Assembly: GCA_964368965.1 (NCBI GenBank)
Contig: CAYJDR010000021.1
Location: 9,094 to 39,731, forward strand
Source: an uncultured Deferribacteraceae bacterium
Lineage (GTDB): Bacteria > Chrysiogenota > Deferribacteres > Deferribacterales > Mucispirillaceae
Length of the DNA stretch: 30,638 bases
Direction of reading: 5' to 3'
The notes under the pieces were generated by a model, which saw only the letters and a list, made by a program, of their open reading frames with translations, was not told the origin of the DNA and did no database searches. Both the position numbers and the translations under genes were made by a program. This document shows, in pieces, positions 2,973 to 27,979 of this stretch. Each line of letters starts with the position of its first letter. Within the stretch, counting starts at the first letter, position 1.

Positions 2973-3011
2973 AAAAAAAGCTAGGCAGTTAATTACCTAG
3001 CTAGATTTTTT
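2973..3011. terminator. bidirectional rho-independent terminator between the Crp-family gene (+) and the YHS gene (-)
   Basis: The sequence is an A-run, then AGCTAGG, a 10-nt loop, CCTAGCT, then a T-run (AGATTTTTT). Both convergent transcripts have a U-run after the hairpin. Confidence 0.5.
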
Positions 3012-3282
3012 ATCCATTTTTATGTTGGTCAATAAATTTGTTTTTGCAATCTTCACTACAGAAGTAGTAAACATCGTTGTAAAGTTTAACTTTGTGGTCT
3101 GTGTCTTCATCAACAAACGATTTACAAATTGGGTCTTGCTTCATCTCTAAAGCTTTTTGAGCTTTCTCTTCTTCTTTACGTTTTTGTTCTGCTTCTTTCT
3201 TTTTTGCATCTGCCTTCTTATAGAACGCATACACCGCAAATATCACAAGCGCTAAAATAAGAAGCTTTGGTAAACTAAACAT
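3010..3282 (-). CDS. small membrane-anchored YHS-domain protein (putative metal-binding)
   Basis: The 90-aa ORF has an N-terminal transmembrane helix (LPKLLILALVIFAVYAFY), a K/E-rich linker, and a C-terminus DPICKSFVDEDTDHKVKLYNDVYYFCSEDCKNKF that matches the YHS/TRASH-type pattern (CxxxV…YYFCSxxCxxxF). It has a GAGGGGG ribosome-binding site. Confidence 0.6.
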   Translation of the reverse strand: MFSLPKLLILALVIFAVYAFYKKADAKKKEAEQKRKEEEKAQKALEMKQDPICKSFVDEDTDHKVKLYNDVYYFCSEDCKNKFIDQHKNG

Positions 3283-5519: not shown

Positions 5520-5774
5520 CTATTTGACAGGGTCGTAACCGCCACGAGAAAATGGGTGGCACCTGAGTAAACGCCAAATAGTTAAGAATGTGCCTTTGAA
5601 AAAGCCTTTTTTGCTATATGCTTCAATAGCATACGAAGAACAGCTGGGATAAAACCTACAATTATTGCCTAAATAAGGCGAAATACAAAGTTTATAAATT
5701 TTTATCAATCCTATCGCGATTGACTTTGGCTGTAATCTTTGTAAATAGATGGATAATTTCTGCTTGAATTTCAT
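5520..5774 (-). CDS. yidD: membrane protein insertion efficiency factor YidD
   Basis: The conserved core [57 protein letters not shown] matches YidD. The start is ambiguous (GTG 5786, ATG 5774, TTG 5708), and every candidate overlaps the rnpA 3' end. Confidence 0.75.
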
Positions 5775-6096
5775 TAAAACTAGCACCTATTGCTGTAGGC
5801 TTCGCCCTTATTATAAGCTGTGTCCCAGCGGGTAATACACTTCTATTGAGTCGATATATTTCCCTAAGCCTTCGCTTGAGTTTGTTGCGTTTGACAGCAA
5901 GCTTACTAACTTTCTTGCTGACAGTAAACGCACACTTCAAGCCGCTCTCACCCTGCATAAAATGCACGATGAACAATTCACCCGACAACCGTTTCCCCGC
6001 GTAAACTGTTGAAAATTCTTGCGAAAATCTCAACCTTTCAGAACGGGGAAAAGTGTTGGATATATTAAACTGCGAGACGTTTACGGCCTTTTGCAC
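5692..6096 (-). CDS. rnpA: ribonuclease P protein component
   Basis: The motifs FPRSERLRF…[23 protein letters not shown] are characteristic of RnpA. The ORF-track start at 6096 is a GTG that overlaps rpmH by 32 nt, and there is no canonical start after the rpmH stop, so the true start is uncertain. Confidence 0.8.
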
Positions 6097-6205
6097 GTCT
6101 TCTTCTGATTATAGCTCTGCCAGAACTAGTAGCCATTCTTGCACGAAAGCCTTGTTTGCGTGCTTTTTTAATTTTTGTAGCTTTTGCCAGTGTCAACTGC
6201 GCCAT
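6065..6205 (-). CDS. rpmH: 50S ribosomal protein L34
   Basis: Manual translation (not in the ORF track, 46 aa) gives [46 protein letters not shown]. The L34 core GFRARMAT…[10 protein letters not shown] is canonical. A GGAGG ribosome-binding site (CACGGAGGAATAC-ATG) precedes it. Confidence 0.85.
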
Positions 6206-6239: not shown

Positions 6240-6268
6240 ATAATATTAATTTGCTTTTGATTTGTCAA
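6240..6268 (-). promoter_or_regulatory. candidate sigma70 promoter for rpmH-rnpA-yidD-yidC-jag (TTGACA-N17-TATTAT on the minus strand)
   Basis: A perfect -35 hexamer (complement of 6263..6268) and a 5/6 -10 hexamer (complement of 6240..6245) are separated by a 17-nt spacer, about 30 nt upstream of the rpmH ATG. Confidence 0.45.
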
Positions 6269-6285: not shown

Positions 6286-8742
6286 TTAATATTTCTCATA
6301 CGAAAATGTTTGTTTATAACATTTTACACGTGAAAAATCTTTATTCTCTAGGTCTTTCTTGTCTATCATGAAGTATAGAGCACCACCGTCACCCCATGCC
6401 ATTGCGCAACCTTCAAGTGATGGAACTTGCATAAGCAAGTACATATCTTCGCTTGTTTCCATATCATAGTCGATATAATCAGCATAGCCGAACATCTTGA
6501 AGCGTGGCTCAAAAGTTGAGATATCAATGTATGAATCAATTATGCTTTCATCGTCACCTAAGAAGCCGAATTTATTATCGTCCTCTTCGTAGTTTGGTAG
6601 GCTAACAGATGCATCAAGCCTGATAGCACATGGGAAGTATTCAATCGTATCTTCCATGTCATCGCTTGGCACTCTTACTAGTTTCGTAACATCTTCGTTA
6701 TAAATTACTTGGCTTTCGCCTGTTTCATCGTCGTAGAAGAAGCTTAGCATACCATTTTTCGGCAAGAAGCCTTTAACGTCATATTGTGCTGCTTCAGCAA
6801 GGTTGATTTGTGTGATAAAGTTCATGTAAACGTCGTCGCTTGCTTTTGGCCATTGCGCTTCGCTTGCTAGGTCAGGGCTACCACCTGCTTTTGATATAGC
6901 ACCAAGTGAGTCATCGCTCAACACTTCGTATGCTTCTGCATATATTTCTGAGCGTTGTAACGTTTTTAGCTGATCAGCGTATTTGCTAAGCCCACACTCA
7001 GGCAATATCAATTCATAATCTTCAGCTGTAACTTTAACACTACCGTCCCTCGCCTCAACATATACGCCTAAACGGTTGCTTGGTAGGTAAACCAGTGTAG
7101 CGCTATCAACTTCATCGTTGAATACGGCTTCGATAGTCATGCCATATAGTTTTTCTAAAACTTCGCTACCAACATCTAACCTTGTGATGTCATTAACACC
7201 GTATGCTGTTGGGCTACCTAAAACAAATACGCCTTTATCATCCATAGCAAGTTCAACAACGATAGATGTGTAAGGTTTACCACCAGTGTTCAATTCTTCT
7301 TCAAACATTGATGCTAAGTCTTCCAATTTTTCGCTATTGTCATCTAATGATAGGTCATAATATTCATCGAACTCTTTGATTTCATAAGTGATATCTTCCG
7401 CAGTAATTTCACTTGCGCCATCAGCTGGAGTGAACACAAACAAGAACGTATCCCATGCGCCAGCGATTGACGTTGTAATATCGCCTACTAAGTTTAGTTG
7501 GTCAATTAATTTATCTGCGTATTTATCATCAAGGTGTTGTACTGCAAAGTTGCCACCGTCTGATGTGTATAAATCTAGCGTGTAGCTTTCACCTTCGTCG
7601 ATAAGCCTGATAACACCCATATAGTGTTTGTGCTTAGTTTCGATACACTCCATTAAAGCTGTTGCAAGTATCGGTAAATTTTCAACCATATCTTTTTCGC
7701 CAGCTAGTTCATCGTTCGCTGGTGTAAATTCATCATCTTCTTCATCAGGTGATACGATATTATATACTTTGCTTTCTGCTTTATCTTTTTTATCATGTCC
7801 ACCACAACCACAGCCTTCGCCTTCATCGTGGTTATGTTCGCCACAACATTCGTGGTCGTCATCGTCGTGCCCATGTCCACCGCAACAGCCATCATGGCCG
7901 TGCTCATGCTCATCTTCATCAGCGTATAGTGGATAGAAAGTTGCACTATATCTACCATCGTAGAAACAAGTAACAGTGAACGCCTCTATATCGTGGCGCA
8001 TGTCAGATGCTGTTAGAAACTCTTCGATAGCTAGCGCTAAATCCATATTTTCTTCCATAGATTTATCAACAGTTTCTTCTGTGCCGTCTTTAGTAGTTGT
8101 GTACATTGTTGTGTTGCCAGTGAATAGGCCGTTTTCTACTTCAAACGTAACGTTGCGAACATTTTGCTCGCCTTTTAATATAACTGCTTTTGCGATATTT
8201 CTAAGTGATTCGAACATAGACTTATCTGACTTAGGGTTCTCGATAGTCACTTCTTTCGGTGCACGGTTAAACATGCGTGCTAAGTTTGCAAACTCACCGA
8301 ACACATGGTCTGGCTCGCCATTTGAAAGCCCAAGTATAGCGTATGATTCGACATCATCAGTTAAAACTGTGCCGTAAAATAGTGTTGGTTCTTCTTCAAG
8401 TTCAACCATTCCGCAAATTTCAAGTGCCAACATATCATCAGAGATGAAGTGGCGTGCTGCAAAGAACTCAACATCGCTACCCTCAGCACCTAAGAAGTCT
8501 TCAAGCAATAGCTCAAGCGTCTCGCCAACTGTGTCTTTAGCGTCGTTAAGTTTGCCGATACCAGCCATGAAATTAATACCTTCATCACTCCAAGAATGGA
8601 TAGACATGTTATTATATTTCGCTACGTCTTCAACGCCTGAGATAGCTACTTCAGGTTGTGCACCTTGTTCCGCTATTACATCGCCTGTTTCTTTAAATGC
8701 TTGTTTGATAGCATTAGTCCATGTGTTCATAAATTGCTCCAT
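6286..8742 (-). CDS. large acidic hypothetical cytosolic protein: N-terminal repeated modules, His/Cys/Asp-rich tract, C-terminal DUF1963 (YwqG-like) domain
   Basis: The 818-aa ORF has no signal peptide or transmembrane segment and is very rich in D/E. The C-terminal roughly 205 aa carry DUF1963 hallmarks: SKAGGSPDLASEAQWP…FITQINL…LPKNGMLSFFYD…LLMQV…AWGDGGALYFMIDKKDLENKDFSRVKCYKQ. Its start is 2 nt after the fabI stop. The alternative start M5 (8730) has a GGAG ribosome-binding site. Confidence 0.75.
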   Translation of the reverse strand: MEQFMNTWTNAIKQAFKETGDVIAEQGAQPEVAISGVEDVAKYNNMSIHSWSDEGINFMAGIGKLNDAKDTVGETLELLLEDFLGAEGSDVEFFAARHFISDDMLALEICGMVELEEEPTLFYGTVLTDDVESYAILGLSNGEPDHVFGEFANLARMFNRAPKEVTIENPKSDKSMFESLRNIAKAVILKGEQNVRNVTFEVENGLFTGNTTMYTTTKDGTEETVDKSMEENMDLALAIEEFLTASDMRHDIEAFTVTCFYDGRYSATFYPLYADEDEHEHGHDGCCGGHGHDDDDHECCGEHNHDEGEGCGCGGHDKKDKAESKVYNIVSPDEEDDEFTPANDELAGEKDMVENLPILATALMECIETKHKHYMGVIRLIDEGESYTLDLYTSDGGNFAVQHLDDKYADKLIDQLNLVGDITTSIAGAWDTFLFVFTPADGASEITAEDITYEIKEFDEYYDLSLDDNSEKLEDLASMFEEELNTGGKPYTSIVVELAMDDKGVFVLGSPTAYGVNDITRLDVGSEVLEKLYGMTIEAVFNDEVDSATLVYLPSNRLGVYVEARDGSVKVTAEDYELILPECGLSKYADQLKTLQRSEIYAEAYEVLSDDSLGAISKAGGSPDLASEAQWPKASDDVYMNFITQINLAEAAQYDVKGFLPKNGMLSFFYDDETGESQVIYNEDVTKLVRVPSDDMEDTIEYFPCAIRLDASVSLPNYEEDDNKFGFLGDDESIIDSYIDISTFEPRFKMFGYADYIDYDMETSEDMYLLMQVPSLEGCAMAWGDGGALYFMIDKKDLENKDFSRVKCYKQTFSYEKY

Positions 8743-8744
8743 TT

Positions 8745-9512
8745 TTATACAGATGTTGCGTGGTAACCACTGTCAACATAGATAACTTCTCCAGAAATAC
8801 TTCTTGATAACGAGCTAGCAAGGAATACCGCTAAGTCGCCACACTCTTCGATTTCAACAAGTCTACCAAGTGGTGCACGTTCTGAAAAAAGTGGTAACAA
8901 TTTTCTAAAACCTGCAACGCCAGCAGCAGACAATGTCTTGATAGGACCAGCAGAGATTGCATTAATCCTGTGCCCATTTTGCCCTAACTCAACTGATAAA
9001 TATCTAACTGATGCTTCAAGTGCAGCTTTTGCAACACCCATAACATTATAGTTAGGTACAACTTTTTCTGAGCCGTAATATGTTAGTGTGATAACAGATG
9101 ACTCTTCGTTGAATAAATGTTCAAACGCTTTAGTAACAGCAACTAACGTGTATGCGCTAATATCAAGTGCTGATTTAAAATCGTCTCTAGTTGTTTCAAT
9201 AAATCTATTGCTAAGTGCATCTTGCGAAGCGAAAGCAACAGCGTGAACAAGGATATCTAATTTGCCGTGTTCTGCTTCCCAATCTTTTGCTAATTGAGCT
9301 ATTTCTTCATCATTTGCTAAGTCGCAAACTTTACAAAATTTTGCACCAACTTCTTCTGCGATTGGAAAAACCATTTTCTCTAATCGTGGCATAGCGTAAG
9401 ACAAACCTACTTCTGCACCATGTGCTTTTAATTGCTTCGCAATACCGTAAGCAATACTTTTGTTATTAGCTACACCGAATATCAGTGCTTTTTTACCGTC
9501 AAGTAATCCCAT
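8745..9512 (-). CDS. fabI: enoyl-[acyl-carrier-protein] reductase (NADH) FabI
   Basis: The 255-aa ORF begins MGLLDGKKALIFGVANNKSIAYGIAKQL… and carries SDR-family Y…K catalytic residues, which is typical of FabI. Confidence 0.9.
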   Translation of the reverse strand: MGLLDGKKALIFGVANNKSIAYGIAKQLKAHGAEVGLSYAMPRLEKMVFPIAEEVGAKFCKVCDLANDEEIAQLAKDWEAEHGKLDILVHAVAFASQDALSNRFIETTRDDFKSALDISAYTLVAVTKAFEHLFNEESSVITLTYYGSEKVVPNYNVMGVAKAALEASVRYLSVELGQNGHRINAISAGPIKTLSAAGVAGFRKLLPLFSERAPLGRLVEIEECGDLAVFLASSLSRSISGEVIYVDSGYHATSV

Positions 9513-11917: not shown

Positions 11918-12496
11918 TTATTTTTTACCTGTTAGTTTTTGTAGGGCTTGTTTGATAGCGTCATCAAAACTTGCGTCGCTATCAACGCCATCAAGTGCTT
12001 TTCTGCAATCTTGCGGTTTGAAGCCTAAGTTTACTAATGCGCTGATTACGTCTTGCATTGAGTCGCCACTATCTGAAGAAACACCTAGTTGAACAGAATC
12101 AACTTTGTCTTTCAAATCAACAACGATACGTTCAGCAGTCTTCTTGCCAACACCAGGGATAGATGATAGTAACTCATAATCAGATGATGCGATAGCGTGT
12201 TTAAGCTCTTTCTGCCCAATGCCACCGAGTATCTTTATAGCTAATTTTGCACCGATACTGTTGACAGAGATTAAAAGTAGAAACATTTTCTTTTCATCGA
12301 GGGTGCTAAAGCCGTATAAACTGATATCGTCTTCACGAACAGCCATATGTGTAAAGATGCTATCTTCGCTACCTTCTGGCTTTGAGCTAGAGTATGTGCT
12401 AAGCGAGATATTCACGACATATGCAACACCAGCAACCTCTATAACGATATACGCTGGTTGTTTCTCAATTATTTTGCCTGTAAGCTTATATATCAA
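11918..12496 (-). CDS. ruvA: Holliday junction DNA helicase RuvA
   Basis: From the TTG at 12496 the protein begins (M)[25 protein letters not shown]…, which aligns with the canonical RuvA N-terminus (MIGRLRGIIIEK…). The HhH motifs ([21 protein letters not shown]) are present. The longest ORF (ATG 12541) would add a 15-aa extension that overlaps ruvC by 49 nt. Confidence 0.85.
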
Positions 12497-12981
12497 TACT
12501 TTATCCTCGTTGTTTCCGAATTTGCGACACATATCGCACATGCAAGCGCGTCTGTAACATCAAGTGGCACGCCACCTTTCACAATAATGTTTAAGTGTAG
12601 CTCCACAAGTTTTTTCACTTGCTCTTTTTCTGCCCTGCCATAGCCTGTAACGGCTTTCTTAATCTGCAACGCTGTAAACTCTCTCACAGGTACATCGTGC
12701 GCAATCAATGCCCCGATCAAGCTTCCACGAGCTTGCCCAAGCAACAACGCACTCTTTACGTTTACCGAGTGGAAAACGTCTTCAATGCCTGCAACATCTG
12801 GCTTAAACTGGATGATGACTTTTGCAAGCCCAGATATAAGGCTACCTATGCGAACAGGTAGCTCATCTTTTGGGTTGGATTTAAGCAGTGCGTGCCCAAG
12901 ATACTCTATCTTGTTGTTTTCAACACGCACAACGCCAACACCTGTTTTGTTTAAACCAGGGTCAATCCCTAAAACTATCAT
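12493..12981 (-). CDS. ruvC: crossover junction endodeoxyribonuclease RuvC
   Basis: The N-terminus MIVLGIDPGLNKTGVGVV… has the RuvC catalytic Asp motif. The stop is TGA at 12495..12493, which shows that TGA is a stop codon in this genome. Confidence 0.9.
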   Translation of the reverse strand: MIVLGIDPGLNKTGVGVVRVENNKIEYLGHALLKSNPKDELPVRIGSLISGLAKVIIQFKPDVAGIEDVFHSVNVKSALLLGQARGSLIGALIAHDVPVREFTALQIKKAVTGYGRAEKEQVKKLVELHLNIIVKGGVPLDVTDALACAICVANSETTRIKY

Positions 12982-16010: not shown

Positions 16011-16883
16011 ATGATTAAAAGCATGACCGGTTACGGCAAAATCACTAACTCTTATGAAAAATTTGACGTAACAGTTGAATTAAAAAGCGTAAACAGCAAA
16101 TATCTTGACCCTTCTTTCAGAATGTCTAAGTCATTGAATGCACTAGAGATACCTATTAGAAATATGCTACAAGAATTGCTTGTTAGGGGCAAAGTTGATG
16201 TTCGCATTGAACTCAACATGAACATCTCGCAAAAAATGCCTGTATTAAACGATGAACTACTTGTAGGCTACAAAGCAATATTAGATGAAATAGTATCAAA
16301 AACAGGCATTAACGACGAAGTTAAACTTGAACATATCCTACGTGCACCAGAACTTATCGAATATCGCTCTAACGACGACATTGAAGAAGAGCTACACAAA
16401 TGAGTTATGGAAACGATGAAAGAATGTATCGAGAAACTTGATGAAATGCGCATTGCTGAAGGCATTGCTATGGGTAACGACGTTAAAGCTAACCTTGCAA
16501 CACTTAAAGAAAATGTCGTGAAGATATCTAACGCACGTATCGACGTTTTCGCATTTTGGCATGAAAAATTTACGAAGCGCCTAACTGACTTAGGTGTAGT
16601 TGATATCAACGAAGAACGAATTGTGCATGAAGCTACTGTCTACGGTGAAAAAGCTGATATTTCAGAAGAGCTCACTAGGCTAGATAGCCATACTGACCAA
16701 TTTGAAAGCATCATATCTAAAGAGTTCCCTATTGGCAAAAAGCTCGATTTCCTAAGCCAAGAGATACACCGTGAACTTAACACAATCGCATCGAAAAGCT
16801 CACGTGTTGAGATTATCTCTACTGTTGTAGAGTCTAAAGCTATTGCTGATAGGATACGTGAGCAAATCCAAAACGTGATTTAA
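16011..16883 (+). pseudogene. yicC: YicC-family protein interrupted by a single in-frame TGA at 16401..16403 (ORF-track pieces 16011..16403 and 16407..16883 share one frame)
   Basis: The two ORFs together (130 + 1 + 158 aa) reconstitute a full-length YicC of about 289 aa (MIKSMTGYGK… through …ADRIREQIQNVI). There is no frameshift, only the TGA, and ATG 16407 follows 3 nt later without a ribosome-binding site. It could be a pseudogene, a split gene or a sequencing error. Confidence 0.55.
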
Positions 16884-21622: not shown

Positions 21623-22610
21623 CTATACTTTAAACGAAGCGACTAACGCCTTTAAGTTCTCAGTACGTACTTGCAAGTGTGAAACCGTTGCTGCAACTTG
21701 GCTAATTGCAGAGTTGCTTTCCTCAATACCTGTAGCGATTGTTTGAGTATTTTCAGACACCATTTGTATAGTGTTAAACTGCTCTGTATTTTTGCCAGAT
21801 AGCACTTCTGTATCTCCATAAACAGTTGACACGCTTGAAACAACTTCTTCAAAGCCTGCTGCTGTTTGCTTAATACTTTCAACACCTTCATCAATATATT
21901 CACCTGATTTCAACATTTCGTTTGAAGCAGCATCTGAGTCTGTTTGCAATGTTGAAATAATGGCCTCAATCTCACTTGTAGCTTTTTGCGTACGCTCTGC
22001 AAGCTTACGAACCTCGTCAGCAACTACTGCAAACCCTCTGCCAGCCTCACCTGCGCGTGCAGCCTCGATAGCAGCATTTAATGCAAGTAGGTTTGTTTGG
22101 TCTGCGATATCGTTAATAACAGTTAAAATCTCACCAATATGGCCAGAACTTTCAGATAATCTTGATATCTTCTCAGATAGCGATACTGATTGTTCGCTGA
22201 TTTTCGCAATGCTCTCTTGCACTGACACAAGCTGAGCTTGCCCTTCGCTAGTTGACGAATTTGTAGAGTTTAATATGCTTAAGTTTTTATCAAAAGCAAC
22301 TTTTGATTCGCTAGCAGTTTCGCTAATGAAGCCCATGCTAGATACAATCTCACCAACTTGGTGCGTTTGCCCTTCGAAAGTTATTGCGAGTTCTTCCATA
22401 GTTGCAGCAAGCTCATTATTGCTTGATGCCACTTCTTCAGCAGATGCTTTCACTTCAATAATTATGTTTTGTACGTTTGATACAAACTCGTTAAAGTGTG
22501 TTGCTAGCTCTTCAAGTTCATCATGGCTTGTCGTAGAGATACGCCTTGTTAAGTCGCCATCACCTTGAGTAAAGTCTTTAGTGACATTAATAAACCTTCT
22601 AAGTGGCGTT
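21623..22610 (-). repeat. conserved HAMP plus signalling-domain module of MCP paralog 1 (copy 1 of 3)
   Basis: Stretches of near-identical nucleotides are shared with the other two copies, for example TCTGCCAGCCTCACC…GCAGC…ATAGCAGC/GGCGTTTAATGCAAG…GTTTGTTTGGTCTGC. Confidence 0.7.
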
Positions 22611-23635
22611 ACAACAGTCTTCAACATGATAAACACAATCAATACGCCAATAGCAACTGCAATTAACGACATAACTGAGGCCGCAACTGTAGTAAACTTT
22701 AGCCTATCAGCTGTAGCTGTAGTATATTGAGCAACTGTAGATAATAATACGTCAGAAACTTTACCTAACTTTTCTATCATATCATAGTAGATAGTTCTGT
22801 TTTTATTTTTGATATCTGCATATTGTTTGCTGATGTCAATAAGATTAATAGTGGCAGCCATTAGTGCTTTATTAGCATCCTCAGCCACATCAACAACCTG
22901 CCTAACAGAGTCTACTTTGATAATAGCTCTAAGGTCATTTAATTGTGTAGCAACTAACTCAAGTGTTTCATAAACAGCTTCAGGTGTAGCAACTTTGAAA
23001 GTTTTATAGTCTAAATAGTTAATAGCAACAACAGCCACAGAAGATTTAACTTTATCAACAGCTTCTAATGCTTGTGCTAAGCGAATGATATTTGCGACAT
23101 CTTCGTTTGCGATAGCATCTTTTTGGAATTGGTTCGCTATGTCATAAAGTTTATTGGTGGTTTCTATCATTACTACATAGTTTTCTTTAAAAACACCGTC
23201 TAGCCTAATCATTTCGTCAACGATGCCTATTAAGTCTTCATGTGTTTTAATATAACTTTCTGCGGCGTCATAAGTAGCATCCATATCGTTAGCTAGCGTA
23301 CTAATTAATACTTCATCACGGTTTTCAGCAAGCAACTCACGCAGTGCAGCTATGTCAGCATATGACTGTTTTAAAAATCTTTCAGATCCTTCTTTCCTGC
23401 TTTGTTCTGAACTGATTGTGTAGTTTAAAATATTAATGCTTGTTAAAAGGTTAGAACTGTCAAGCTTCTTTTCAGCATTAATAAAAGGCGTATAGACATG
23501 AGTGGAAGCCTCTGCCTCTTTTGATGAAACTGTTGAAAGCGAATAAATTATCACCCCTTGGATAACCCCTAAGATTACCAGTGATATAACCGCAATCACT
23601 ATTTTTTTCGTAATAGTAAATCTTATCCCAAACAT
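21623..23635 (-). CDS. methyl-accepting chemotaxis protein, paralog 1
   Basis: The architecture is TM1, a roughly 270-aa helical periplasmic ligand-binding domain, TM2, HAMP ([23 protein letters not shown]), then an MCP signalling domain ([34 protein letters not shown]). The start was moved to the ATG at 23635, which is preceded by GGAGGGA; the longest ORF starts at 23662. Confidence 0.9.
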
Positions 23636-23724
23636 ATTTCCCTCCATATTAAAAGTAACCATACATATATACGCATATCGTACACCTATTTTTCAATAAA
23701 ATAAAGATAATTTTATATAAGAGT

Positions 23725-23781: not shown

Positions 23782-24770
23782 TTAAACCTTGAATGAGGCA
23801 ACCAATGCTTTCAAGTTTTCTGTGCGCATTTGTAAGTGTGATACAGTTTTAGCCACTTCACTAACTGCTATATTGCTCTCCTCAATACCTGTAACGATTG
23901 TTTGGGTGCTAGTAGACACAGCTTGTATGATATTGAATTGCTCTGTATTCTTTTCAGACAATAGTTCAGTATCTTGGTAGATTGACTGCACAGTTGATAC
24001 AACATCTTCAAAGCCAGATGCTGTTTGCCCAATGCTATCTACACCTTCGTTAATATACTCACCAGATTTCAACATTTCGCTAGATGCGGCTTCGGAATCG
24101 GTTTGTAATGTAGAGATAATGTTTTCAATTTCGCTTGTAGCTTTTTGTGTGCGTTCTGCAAGTTTGCGCACTTCATCTGCAACTACTGCAAACCCTCTGC
24201 CAGCCTCACCAGCACGTGCAGCTTCAATAGCGGCGTTTAATGCAAGCAAGTTTGTTTGGTCTGCAATGTCATTAATAACGGTTAAGATATCACCGATATG
24301 TTCAGAGCTTTTTGACACCCTTGATATCGTTTGTGATAACGATGTAGATTGCTCACTAATCTTAACAACGTTACCTTGCACTGCAACAAGCTGTGCTTGG
24401 CCTTCACTAGTGGAAGCAGTTGTTTCGTTTAATATTGCTAGGTTGTTATCAAATGCTACTTTTGATTCCTCTGCACTTTTGCTAATTAAAGACATGCTGG
24501 TAACAATTTCGCTGACTTCAGCAGTTTGGCCATCAAATGTAACTGCTAACTCTTCCATAGTTGCAGCTAGCTCGTTGTTGCTTGTAGCGACTTCTTCCGC
24601 AGCTATTTTAACTTCAGTAATGATATTCTGAACATTTTCAACAAATGCATTGAAGTATGTGGAAAGCTCTTCCAATTCATCACGGCTAGTTGTTGTGATG
24701 CGCCTAGTTAAATCACCGTCACCTTCTGTGAAATCTTTAGTGATATTGATAAACCTTCTAAGTGGCGCTG
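23782..24770 (-). repeat. conserved HAMP plus signalling-domain module of MCP paralog 2 (copy 2 of 3)
   Basis: It shares the same conserved nucleotide stretches and is closest to copy 3. Confidence 0.7.
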
Positions 24771-25794
24771 TAACTGTTTTCATAATAACAAGTACAACAA
24801 TAATGCCTATTGCAACAGCAATAATTGCCATGATATATGATGCAGTAGTCGTTAAATCTAACCTTTCAACCGTTGCAGCAGCATATTCTTCACTTCTAGT
24901 GTTTAGTGTTTTGATAACGCCATCTAAATGTTTGCTCATTTCTGCAAAAGCGTTTCTATTTTGTACTTTTAAGCCATCATATTCCACTTTGATATCTGCA
25001 AGGATAGCCGCAGTTTCTATTAAAGTATTGCCTGCTTTTTCAGCTGTCTCAATCATCTGAAAAGTAGTTGGTTGTTTAACAACTTTTTTAAGTGTAGCTA
25101 GTGCTGCTAAAACTTCCTTAGTGTTATCTGTAATAAATTTGAAGTCACTTGAAGTGAAAGTTTTAATAGTAAGGTAACCATAAACAACATCTTCAATAGC
25201 AGCTGTTAAGTGGTAGTTAGCTTCAATTGCTTTAGCGATACGGTTAGTATTTTCGACATCGCCATCTGCTATCGCTTTGTTCATATATCTGAACGCGTCT
25301 CCAGTGAGAGTCGAGATATTTTCGCGCGCTACATTTAATGCTTCGAGAAATTTTTCCTCTTGTGTTACAGACTCAGACGTAAGATCTAACAGCCTTGTTG
25401 TAGAAGCTAGGAATGCATCAATGCCTTTGTTTGTAGCTTCAAACTCATCGAGCAGCGATTGAATTAGTGGATCATCACCATTTTCATCAACCATATTTTT
25501 AACTAACGCTTTAGTGCTATTAGCTTGCGCTAAAAATGCTTTTGCGCGCTCAGATCTAGCATTATCACCATCAATTGAAAAGTTAACAACATTGAGGTTT
25601 GCTAACAATATCGAGTTTTTAACAGAGTTTTCTGCAAAGTTCAATGGATAGTATATCTCGTTAGAAGCTTTTGCTTCATTCGTAGACTTTTTTGCTAGTA
25701 TCGAAATTATTGCACCTTGCGCAATATATAGCATGATAAGTATAACTATACCTGCAACTATTTTCTTAGTAATTGTAAACCTAAATCCGTTCAT
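23782..25794 (-). CDS. methyl-accepting chemotaxis protein, paralog 2
   Basis: It has the same architecture as paralog 1. A GGAGG ribosome-binding site sits 7 nt upstream of the ATG. The C-terminal roughly 330 aa are about 93% identical to paralog 3. Confidence 0.9.
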
Positions 25795-25963: not shown

Positions 25964-26950
25964 TCAAACTTTAAATGAAGCGACAAGTGCCTTTAAGTTT
26001 TCAGTACGCATTTGTAGGTGCGATACAGTTTGAGCAACTTGGCTAACAGCGATATTGCTTTCCTCAATACCCGTAACGATTGTTTGAGTACTGCTTGAAA
26101 CAGTTTGTATAATATTGAACTGCTCTGTATTCTTTTCAGACAATAGCTCAGTATCTTGATAGATTGACTGCACTGTTGCAACAACTTCTTCAAATCCAGC
26201 AGCAGTTTGCCCGATACTATCTACACCCTCATTAATATATTCGCCAGATTTTAGCATCTCATTTGATGCTGCTTCAGAATCTGTTTGTAATGTAGATATA
26301 ATGTTTTCAATTTCACTTGTTGCTTTTTGCGTACGCTCTGCCAGTTTGCGCACCTCATCTGCAACCACTGCAAACCCTCTGCCAGCCTCACCAGCACGAG
26401 CAGCTTCGATAGCGGCGTTTAATGCAAGCAAGTTTGTTTGGTCTGCTATATCATTAATAACTGTTAAAATATCGCCGATATGTTCAGAGCTTTTCGACAC
26501 CCTTGATATCGTTTGTGATAACGATGTAGATTGCTCACTAATTTTAACAACATTACCTTGCACCGCAATAAGTTGTGCTTGGCCTTCGCTTGTGGAAGTT
26601 GTTGTTTCATTTAATATATCTAAGTTGTTACAGAAAGCTGTTTTTGACTCTTCAGCGCTTTCACTAATTATAGACATGCTTGTCATAATCTCGCCAACTT
26701 GGTGCGTTTGGTCATCAAATGTAACAGCTAGCTCTTCCATTGTTGCAGCTAATTCATTGTTGCTTGTTGCAACTTCTTCTGCAGCGGCTTTAACTTCAAT
26801 AATGATGTTTTGAACATTTGCCACAAATGCATTAAAGTATCTTGCAAGTTCTTCTAACTCGTCATGGCTAGTAGTTGTAATGCGCCTTGTTAAGTCGCCA
26901 TCGCCCTCTGTAAAATCTTTAGTTGTGCTGATAAAGTTTCTAAGTGGTTG
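25964..26950 (-). repeat. conserved HAMP plus signalling-domain module of MCP paralog 3 (copy 3 of 3)
   Basis: It shares the same conserved nucleotide stretches and is closest to copy 2. Confidence 0.7.
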
Positions 26951-27979
26951 CACAATCGCCCTACGCACAACAAACATACTCACGATACCTACTAAAAGTG
27001 TCGATAGCACAAGTATAAATGATGTAAGTGTAGTGAACTGTAGCCTTGATGAAGTGGCTTCTGAATATGTTGCAACTCTATTATTCATCGCTGCTGAAAT
27101 TTTATCTAGTTCTGCTTTCATTTTGTAGTAGATATCTCTATTTTCAGCTTTTATATCATTATATGATGCCATGATTTTATCTAACTCTGTTGCTGTTGAT
27201 ATAAGGTTTTTACTTGCTTCATCTGCTGCTTTTATAAACACTTGAACATCACTACGCTTAACTTGAACCTTCAAATTATTTACAGCTTCTGTTACAAGTG
27301 CAATAGATTTCACAACTTCGTCCATGTCATATTTGCTGAGGTTTTTTGCATCAAAAAACTGCTTTGTAACCATAGCAACTGCCGACTTTAACTCCTCGCT
27401 GAGTTGAAGTGCATTTATAGTGTTTGACATTGCTGTAACATCGCCAGAATCTGCGATAATGTCTGCCCTCTTGGTAGATTCACTATGTATGGTGCTTGCG
27501 CTTGTATCCATAATATTCAACTTTTCAATAAACTCGCTCTCCAGTGTCAACATGTCATCAATTATTGTAAATAAGTCATCATGTGTTCCGATATATAAGC
27601 CTGCCTGCGTATATGCCGCTTCCATTGTTGATGATAATTCATTAATTAGGTCGTTACTGTCACGGTGCTCGGCTAATAACTCTTGAAGCACAACTAAATC
27701 ATCTTTTGAACTTTGTTGGAATGTTGCCGCACCACTTTTACGGGTTGGGTCAGCTGTGATAAGGTAGTTAACCAAGTTGATGTTGGTCAACAATAGTGAA
27801 GTATTAAGAGCAACTTCTGCATTTACAAATGGCACGTACACATCATTTGATGCGGTTGCCTCACGTGATGACACTGTTGATAATGAGTAATTAATAACCC
27901 CTTGCACAACACCTATCATCAGTAGCACGACAGTGATAATTGCAACCTTTTTAGCAATTGTAAGTCTGAATATGTTCAT
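25964..27979 (-). CDS. methyl-accepting chemotaxis protein, paralog 3
   Basis: It has the same architecture as the other two paralogs and a GGAGGA ribosome-binding site. Its N-terminal sensor domain diverges from paralogs 1 and 2, while the C-terminal signalling module is near-identical. Confidence 0.9.

Follow-up and report, generated by a model that had tools for sequence, protein, structure and literature searches.

A strongly acidic multidomain protein encoded directly behind fabI in Deferribacterota, tentatively read as a protein-binding chaperone or adaptor

We analyzed a 30,638-nucleotide (nt) stretch of DNA from an uncultured Deferribacteraceae bacterium (contig CAYJDR010000021.1, hereafter the window) with respect to a large open reading frame (ORF) that directly follows fabI. 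A previous reading of the letters alone (the sequence-only reading) had described this ORF as encoding 818 amino acids (aa) from a start 2 nt after fabI. The frame is indeed uninterrupted and its first ATG lies 2 nt past the fabI stop (Table 1), but translation probably begins further in. A GGAG Shine-Dalgarno-like site falls within the first ATGGAGCAATTTATG, 6 nt ahead of a second ATG (8730). The identical protein deposited at NCBI (P0001, 814 aa) is annotated from this second ATG, and most homologues open with M-x-x-W. Because of this spacing, the annotated start of P0001 and the shared opening of the homologues, the true start is probably the ATG at 8730, giving a product of 814 aa and a gap to fabI of 14 nt, which is still tight. 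Residue numbers of the predicted parts and peptides below refer to the 814-aa protein. The product has a computed isoelectric point (pI) of 4.11, with 174 Asp and Glu against 58 Lys and Arg residues and a net charge of about -115, and each of its segments is acidic (computed pI 4.05-4.63). Inspection of the sequence revealed no hydrophobic N-terminus, signal peptide or membrane segment, in line with the earlier description of a strongly acidic, cytosolic protein.

Table 1. Positions of the ORF, its predicted parts and the adjoining features in the window
Feature	Position	Strand	Remarks
Whole ORF	6286..8742	minus	818 aa from the first ATG, uninterrupted; stop codon 6286-6288
Probable true start	8728..8740	minus	GGAG Shine-Dalgarno 8737-8740, 6-nt spacer, ATG 8728-8730; 814 aa
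N-terminal helix and D1, Mog1/PsbP/Eag(DUF1795)-like alpha-beta sandwich	8251..8730	minus	residues 1-160
D2, helix-three strands-helix-two strands	7924..8250	minus	residues 161-269
Disordered His/Cys/Asp/Glu-rich linker, presumed metal-binding	7705..7923	minus	residues 270-342; pLDDT about 30
D3-D4 unit, DUF600/EsaG/BH3703-like (Imm36) fold	7036..7704	minus	residues 343-565
Two-helix connector from D4 to TYPP	6955..7035	minus	residues 566-592; contains the second peptide of the sequence-only reading, VTAEDYELILPE
C-terminal TYPP (DUF1963/YwqG) domain	6289..6954	minus	GGSP motif; conserved Q of LLMQVPS
fabI (enoyl-ACP reductase)	8745..9512	minus	Pfam adh_short_C2, E=3.6e-81; directly upstream
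rpmH (ribosomal protein L34, 46 aa)	6065..6205	minus	first gene of the rpmH-rnpA-yidD-yidC-jag cluster
Near-consensus sigma-70-type promoter, TTGACA, 17 nt, TATTAT	6240..6268	minus	11/12 matches; between the ORF stop and rpmH

From the N-terminus onward, we distinguish a Mog1/PsbP/Eag-like domain (D1), a second domain (D2), a disordered His/Cys/Asp linker, a DUF600/EsaG-like unit (D3-D4), a two-helix connector and a TYPP domain. The AlphaFold2 model has a predicted local distance difference test score (pLDDT) of 78 overall and 89 for D3-D4. That the C-terminus belongs to DUF1963, as the sequence-only reading had it, was confirmed by a PF09234 match over residues 617-808 that scores far above the cutoff of 23 bits (114.7 bits, E=1e-32) and spans profile positions 1-212 of 216; seven of the 11 members of the family described below are matched as well. 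The domain shows the two-repeat all-beta fold of YwqG (1PV5) and carries the motifs SKAGGSPD and LLMQVPS, the latter aligning with MLLQIDS of 1PV5. A GGxP motif and a conserved Gln in the second repeat are criteria of the TYPP superfamily (PMC4275035), which comprises TSR4, YwqG, PDCD2L and PDCD2, and both are kept in the TYPP-bearing family members.

The earlier remark that no family could be recognized for the N-terminal 600 or so residues agrees with Pfam and NCBIfam searches of the query and the family members. NCBIfam and PADLOC gave no matches, DUF1795, PsbP and Mog1 were not matched in Pfam by the query at E values up to 1 or by any family member, and profiles of D1 and of D3-D4 found nothing significant among PDB sequences. 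Likewise, no nucleic-acid-related domain was detected with Pfam and NCBIfam in the query or the family members. The fold assignments for this part come from the structural model. D1 is predicted to adopt the alpha-beta-alpha sandwich of the Mog1/PsbP-like class, and the immunity proteins Tsi3 and TplEi are among the D1-type structural matches. Because a separate search with the D3-D4 model gave no Mog1/PsbP match, these matches would by elimination belong to D1, possibly together with D2. For D3-D4, EsaG, which is the antitoxin to the nuclease EsaD, was the best structural match, with BH3703/DUF600 next, and the modeled unit appears to have a BH3703-like fold. The YezG-like Pfam model PF04634 reached 15.0 bits (E=0.029) in one family member only, below its cutoff of 21.7 bits.

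The sequence-only reading had also proposed two related modules of about 90 aa ending in near-identical peptides, which we identified as ASEITAEDITYEIKEF (residue 439) and SVKVTAEDYELILPEC (residue 564). This proposal did not hold up. The similarity within the single sequence is marginal (its score was reached by 33 of 1000 shuffles; BLAST E=0.025), the likeness between the two peptides is not kept in homologues, and in the model ASEITAEDITYEIKEF lies in a strand of D3, SVKVTAEDYELILPEC in the helix after D4. Profile comparison supports a distant relationship between a different pair, D2 (161-269) and D4 (463-565), which hhalign aligned over 92 columns with a probability of 84% (E=7.5e-6). The hhalign comparisons of D3 with D4, D2 with D3 and D1 with D3 were not significant.

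We searched 1.84 billion representative proteins exhaustively with HMMER, using residues 1-612 (818-aa numbering) as the query. At E<=1e-3 only 11 proteins were returned, each a cluster representative, and all traceable ones come from Deferribacterota. Six (767-812 aa) carry the TYPP domain, three (about 545 aa) stop right after D4 and lack it, one is a fragment and one is joined to a biotin-lipoyl domain, perhaps as an artefact. Named members are Mucispirillum schaedleri WP_023274961.1 (annotated as 'hypothetical protein'), a Mucispirillum sp. and an uncultured Deferribacteraceae metagenome-assembled genome. Among the proteins searched, the family is shown to be lineage-specific to Deferribacterota. 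A full-length word-index homology search found two proteins only; the same type of search with residues 5-270 and 330-612 found nothing and missed even the identical P0001, and a metagenome scan added only three Mucispirillum-type loci. We conclude that the N-terminal part represents a new, unannotated family of about 560 aa that is restricted to Deferribacterota. The biotin-lipoyl fusion, P0007 (443 aa), consists of D1, D2, the linker and the start of D3 ahead of the biotin-lipoyl domain. In locus L039, the opposite strand carries a biotin-carrier gene (7071-7595) two genes downstream, so P0007 may have arisen by rearrangement or be a chimera of the assembly.

Acidity is kept across the family (pI 4.1-4.7). 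The strongest residue conservation sits in D1-D2 and not in the linker: D1 carries most of the invariant residues, and D2 ends in the family motif F-T-V-T-x-F-x-D-G-R-Y-x-x-T-F-Y-P, of which DGRYxxTFYP is the best-conserved stretch in the family. The protein diverges much faster than the products of its neighbor genes. In the closest relative (L001) it shares 52% identity, compared to 76-90% for fabI, radA and ruvB, and in distant relatives 23-33%, compared to 60-64% for fabI, about 70% for radA and about 75% for ruvB; the downstream neighbors yidC and jag have 55-64% and 50-55% identity there.

The His/Cys/Asp-rich tract noticed earlier is present as a disordered segment with CCGGHGH- and GCGC-type motifs. 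It is 22-77 residues long within proteins of 540-810 residues and cannot be aligned between members; its composition is nevertheless conserved, with His and Cys enriched 5-14 times in 10 of the 11 members. The motif HDDDHECCGGHGH recurs in many genomes, where SlyD-type FKBP proteins carry it in their C-terminal tails, and our genome scan found HDDDHECCGGHGH/GCGC tails on such proteins in Vibrio, Tolumonas, Psychromonas, Aliagarivorans, Ruminobacter and Oceanispirochaeta. As SlyD tails bind the nickel used in enzyme maturation (PMC11198818, PMC7055735), we presume by analogy that the linker binds a transition metal. The scan of genome contigs used the low-complexity pattern DDDHECC and yielded one true relative and 27 unrelated His/Cys tails. 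The HDDDHECCGGHGH tails were seen in L003-L029 (e.g., L007 2125-2763, L009 9461-10126 and L025 9569-10186). In many Gammaproteobacteria and a spirochaete their carriers are SlyD-type FKBP proteins; unrelated carriers are a Collinsella NAD-dependent dehydrogenase-like protein and small proteins of Akkermansia and Clostridium.

Upstream of the ORF, the minus strand carries in order fabI, radA, ruvB, ruvA, ruvC, yebC, coaBC and a Band-7 gene, so that the gene set given by the sequence-only reading (fabI to yebC) stands; fabI, radA and yebC were identified by Pfam and ruvC, ruvA and ruvB by synteny with L001. Downstream lie rpmH, rnpA, yidD, yidC, jag (the last four identified by Pfam) and a small YHS-like ORF. 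At the junction of fabI and the ORF, the window shows neither a promoter nor a terminator match. Because this junction lacks a promoter match and a strong promoter follows the ORF, the ORF is predicted to close the upstream unit, as the last gene of the unit containing fabI and outside the rpmH operon.

We compared this arrangement in 12 loci (the window, L001, L030-L036 and L038-L040). In all of them fabI stands immediately upstream on the same strand, and it is the sole invariant neighbor; this invariant coupling to fabI is a new observation. At the other side, rpmH-rnpA follow in 10 of the 11 loci with a visible downstream side (L030-L034 and L040 have a Ribosomal_L34 annotation at this position), and a methylmalonyl-CoA mutase gene takes the place of rpmH in L039. 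The repair genes are less constant: radA precedes fabI in six loci (the window and five others), with yebC-ruvCAB also upstream in the four radA-bearing loci whose contigs extend far enough, whereas in the other six fabI is preceded by hsdR, by an outer membrane protein gene and RtcB, or by defence-type genes. The distance between fabI and the homologue reaches about 490-750 nt in some Mucispirillum-type loci. The position is kept in relatives down to 23-33% identity, which bears out the earlier view of a stable member of the locus and not a recent insertion. The proposed link to Holliday-junction and repair genes fares differently. As radA lies upstream in only 6 of 12 loci and fabI in 12 of 12, the ORF is not tied to these genes, and we infer that the protein is not a dedicated DNA-repair component. 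No toxin, type VI or type VII secretion system gene adjoins the homologue in the 12 loci and no toxin gene occurs in the 30.6-kb window; hydrogenase, urease or metal-transport genes were not found adjacent either.

The YHS-like ORF of the window (3010-3282, minus) scores 26.9 bits, below the Pfam cutoff of 30.3, and is flanked by a Crp-family regulator gene and an FAD-binding oxidoreductase gene. Most relatives (L030-L034, L040) have a small YHS-domain ORF after jag, and in several a TPR gene and folE2 (GCHY-1) come next; of these, the window contains the YHS-like ORF alone.

Tentatively, and with somewhat less than an even chance of being right, we propose that the protein binds other proteins multivalently, as a chaperone or adaptor, and carries a metal-binding linker. 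We favor this reading because the fold class of each recognizable module has characterized members that bind proteins. Eag/DUF1795 chaperones hold the transmembrane helices of effectors (PMC7773334), EsaG binds and deforms the nuclease domain of EsaD (PMC9616950), and the eukaryotic TYPP members PDCD2 and Tsr4 are dedicated chaperones of the ribosomal protein uS5 (PMC4275035, PMC7736825, PMC6648895). For bacterial TYPP proteins, Burroughs and Aravind predicted a role in protein-protein interaction or a chaperone-like role (PMC4275035). The conserved acidity and the SlyD-like linker argue for the same reading. In such a protein, the three modules (D1, D3-D4 and TYPP) would clamp exposed or unfolded segments of other proteins, and the negative surface would favor basic clients. 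The flexible linker may bind Ni, Zn or Co as the SlyD tail does, and might deliver metal or regulate the two halves of the protein.

Several points weigh against this proposal. The function is drawn from fold analogy, and the likeness to Mog1/PsbP and DUF600 lies in structure and not in sequence (5-13% identity). A chaperone or adaptor leaves the constant pairing with fabI unexplained, and one member, P0010, shows no His/Cys enrichment. The Mucispirillum members lack the TYPP domain, which therefore is not essential to the core function. Finally, Burroughs and Aravind saw nothing to link bacterial TYPP proteins to the ribosome (PMC4275035).

The protein might instead be a domesticated polyimmunity-type fusion (PsbP/Mog1-like, Imm36/DUF600-like and TYPP) that neutralizes a toxin, most plausibly a nuclease delivered by a competitor or encoded elsewhere in the genome. 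The top rank of EsaG and then BH3703/DUF600 among the D3-D4 matches, the weak YezG-like Pfam match, the presence of Tsi3 and TplEi among the D1-type matches and an evolution that is fast relative to the neighbors, as in immunity proteins, are what such a fusion would show. It has also been described that the main link of DUF600, or Imm36, is to Tox-NucA, that it occurs in fusions with further immunity domains, and that Imm-SuFu is fused to PsbP/MOG1 (PMC3482391), all of which counts for this view. We nevertheless consider it unlikely, as the gene keeps one fixed position beside housekeeping genes across the lineage, which broadly fits vertical inheritance, adjoins no toxin or type VI or VII secretion gene in the 12 loci and forms no tandem arrays. 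Furthermore, the YezG-like score stays below the cutoff (15 against 21.7 bits), PADLOC gave no match, and immunity proteins do not characteristically have a conserved metal-binding linker.

We give a similarly low chance to a protein that acts mainly as a metal buffer, store or metallochaperone of the SlyD, HypB or Hpn type, with folded modules that only dock onto a metalloenzyme or its maturation machinery. The composition of the tract is kept in 10 of 11 members, the linker is motif-identical to SlyD tails, the overall acidity favors cation binding, and relatives repeatedly have a YHS-domain gene and folE2 (GCHY-1) within a few genes on the downstream side (the YHS-like ORF of the window is sub-cutoff). 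However, the tract makes up only 22-77 of 540-810 residues, the top-conserved residues are in D1-D2, P0010 lacks the enrichment, and the adjacent genes include none for hydrogenase, urease or metal transport. Similar tails occur on many unrelated proteins, so the tail may be an add-on.

A further reading, which we regard as distinctly improbable, is a bacterial chaperone dedicated to very basic ribosomal or RNA-binding proteins, whose TYPP domain would serve it as it serves PDCD2 and Tsr4 in handling uS5. L34 and the RNase P protein, both encoded just downstream in 10 of 11 loci, would be candidate clients. To our knowledge, dedicated ribosomal-protein chaperones have been described in eukaryotes only. 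We see equally little prospect for a partner or regulator of FabI or fatty-acid synthesis. Such a role is suggested by fabI, which directly precedes the gene on the same strand in all 12 loci however the rest varies, and by the tight junction in the window, where the 2-14 nt between the two contain no promoter match. Against it, we found no domain related to lipids or ACP, reliance on the fabI promoter could by itself account for the pairing, the gap widens to about 490-750 nt in some Mucispirillum-type loci, and FabI, at 60-76% identity, accompanies a fast-diverging protein, unlike a co-evolving complex.

Least probable is the idea of the sequence-only reading that the protein is an acidic DNA mimic or accessory factor acting with RuvABC and RadA in recombination or repair: the extreme acidity, an EsaG-like fold shared with a nuclease inhibitor and the location after radA-fabI in the window and five other loci (with yebC-ruvCAB in the four reaching far enough) speak for it, but radA and ruv are missing upstream in 6 of 12 loci where the gene-fabI pair is kept, no nucleic-acid-related domain was detected, a 91-kDa protein of five modules is unlike the known DNA mimics, which are small proteins, and none of our tests supports it.

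Some further features of the window lie outside the ORF. The yicC gene (16011-16883, plus) is split by one in-frame TGA (stop codon 16401-16403), which aligns with TGC (Cys) in a Deferribacteraceae relative (L001 1707-2579, minus); the rest is full-length with no frameshift. The TGA could stem from a Sec/Cys pair, from a point mutation or from an error in sequencing, and the RNA downstream of it has no convincing SECIS-like hairpin (z = -1.2). Three ORFs in tandem, each of about 670 aa (21623-23662, 23782-25794 and 25964-27979, minus) and putatively encoding methyl-accepting chemotaxis proteins, have nearly identical C-terminal halves and diverged N-terminal halves, suggesting recent duplication or gene conversion. 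The mechanically called ruvA ORF (11918-12541, minus) encodes 207 aa and overlaps ruvC by 49 nt, its homologues having 192 aa; the rnpA ORF (5692-6096, minus) encodes 134 aa from a GTG start that overlaps rpmH, with homologues of 112-133 aa. As both ORFs are longer than their homologues, the true starts probably lie further downstream.

Taken up again, the chaperone or adaptor reading concerns an unannotated family that includes the mouse-gut model organism Mucispirillum schaedleri. Folds are now assigned to all parts of the protein, if partly from the model, and a tempting but unsupported tie to Holliday-junction repair is removed. The fixed position, the presumed metal linker and two further putative client-binding modules make the protein a tractable entry to the binding partners of bacterial TYPP domains.

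Compared to known systems, D1 differs from Eag/DUF1795 proteins (EagT6, SciW, PA0094) and from Mog1/PsbP/DcrB in sequence, with 5-13% identity and no Pfam match. Eag is a dimeric protein of about 145 aa, whereas D1 is part of a large fusion, and in the window and its relatives the gene lies not beside a prePAAR or Rhs effector gene but between fabI and rpmH-rnpA-yidC. The D3-D4 unit departs from EsaG, YezG and BH3703 (DUF600, Imm36) in its sub-cutoff Pfam score, in having no adjacent nuclease toxin (EsaD, YeeF, Tox-NucA) in the window or the 11 related loci, and in its single copy in a housekeeping locus instead of polyimmunity arrays. The linker resembles the SlyD tail in composition, in the short motifs HDDDHECCGGHGH and GCGC, in disorder and in its attachment to a chaperone-like protein (PMC11198818); it is, however, internal and not C-terminal, comes with no FKBP or IF domain, and its metal binding is predicted only.

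At the C-terminus, YwqG is a stand-alone protein of about 260 aa, while the DUF1963 domain here ends a protein of 814 aa and is lacking in the Mucispirillum orthologues. DUF1963 had been said to have no established function; this stands for the bacterial members, for which no client is known, but not for the eukaryotic TYPP members, as PDCD2 and Tsr4 chaperone uS5. Our literature search on bacterial YwqG function and the Mucispirillum accession found no functional data. The closest precedent for the architecture are the TYPP 'family four' proteins with N-terminal PsbP/Mog1 domains (Burroughs and Aravind 2014, PMC4275035), which share a Mog1/PsbP-type domain ahead of TYPP and were read as an interaction or chaperone-like assembly. 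Here, in contrast, the TYPP domain matches the Pfam DUF1963 model covering the YwqG family, the N-terminal domain has no detectable sequence similarity to the PsbP/DUF1795 families, and D2, the metal linker and the DUF600-like unit are inserted between the two. Because TYPP-PsbP/Mog1 fusions were already described (PMC4275035), the architecture is not wholly new, contrary to the first impression of an undescribed one. The component folds and the C-terminal family were known before, and what is new is this particular five-part arrangement.

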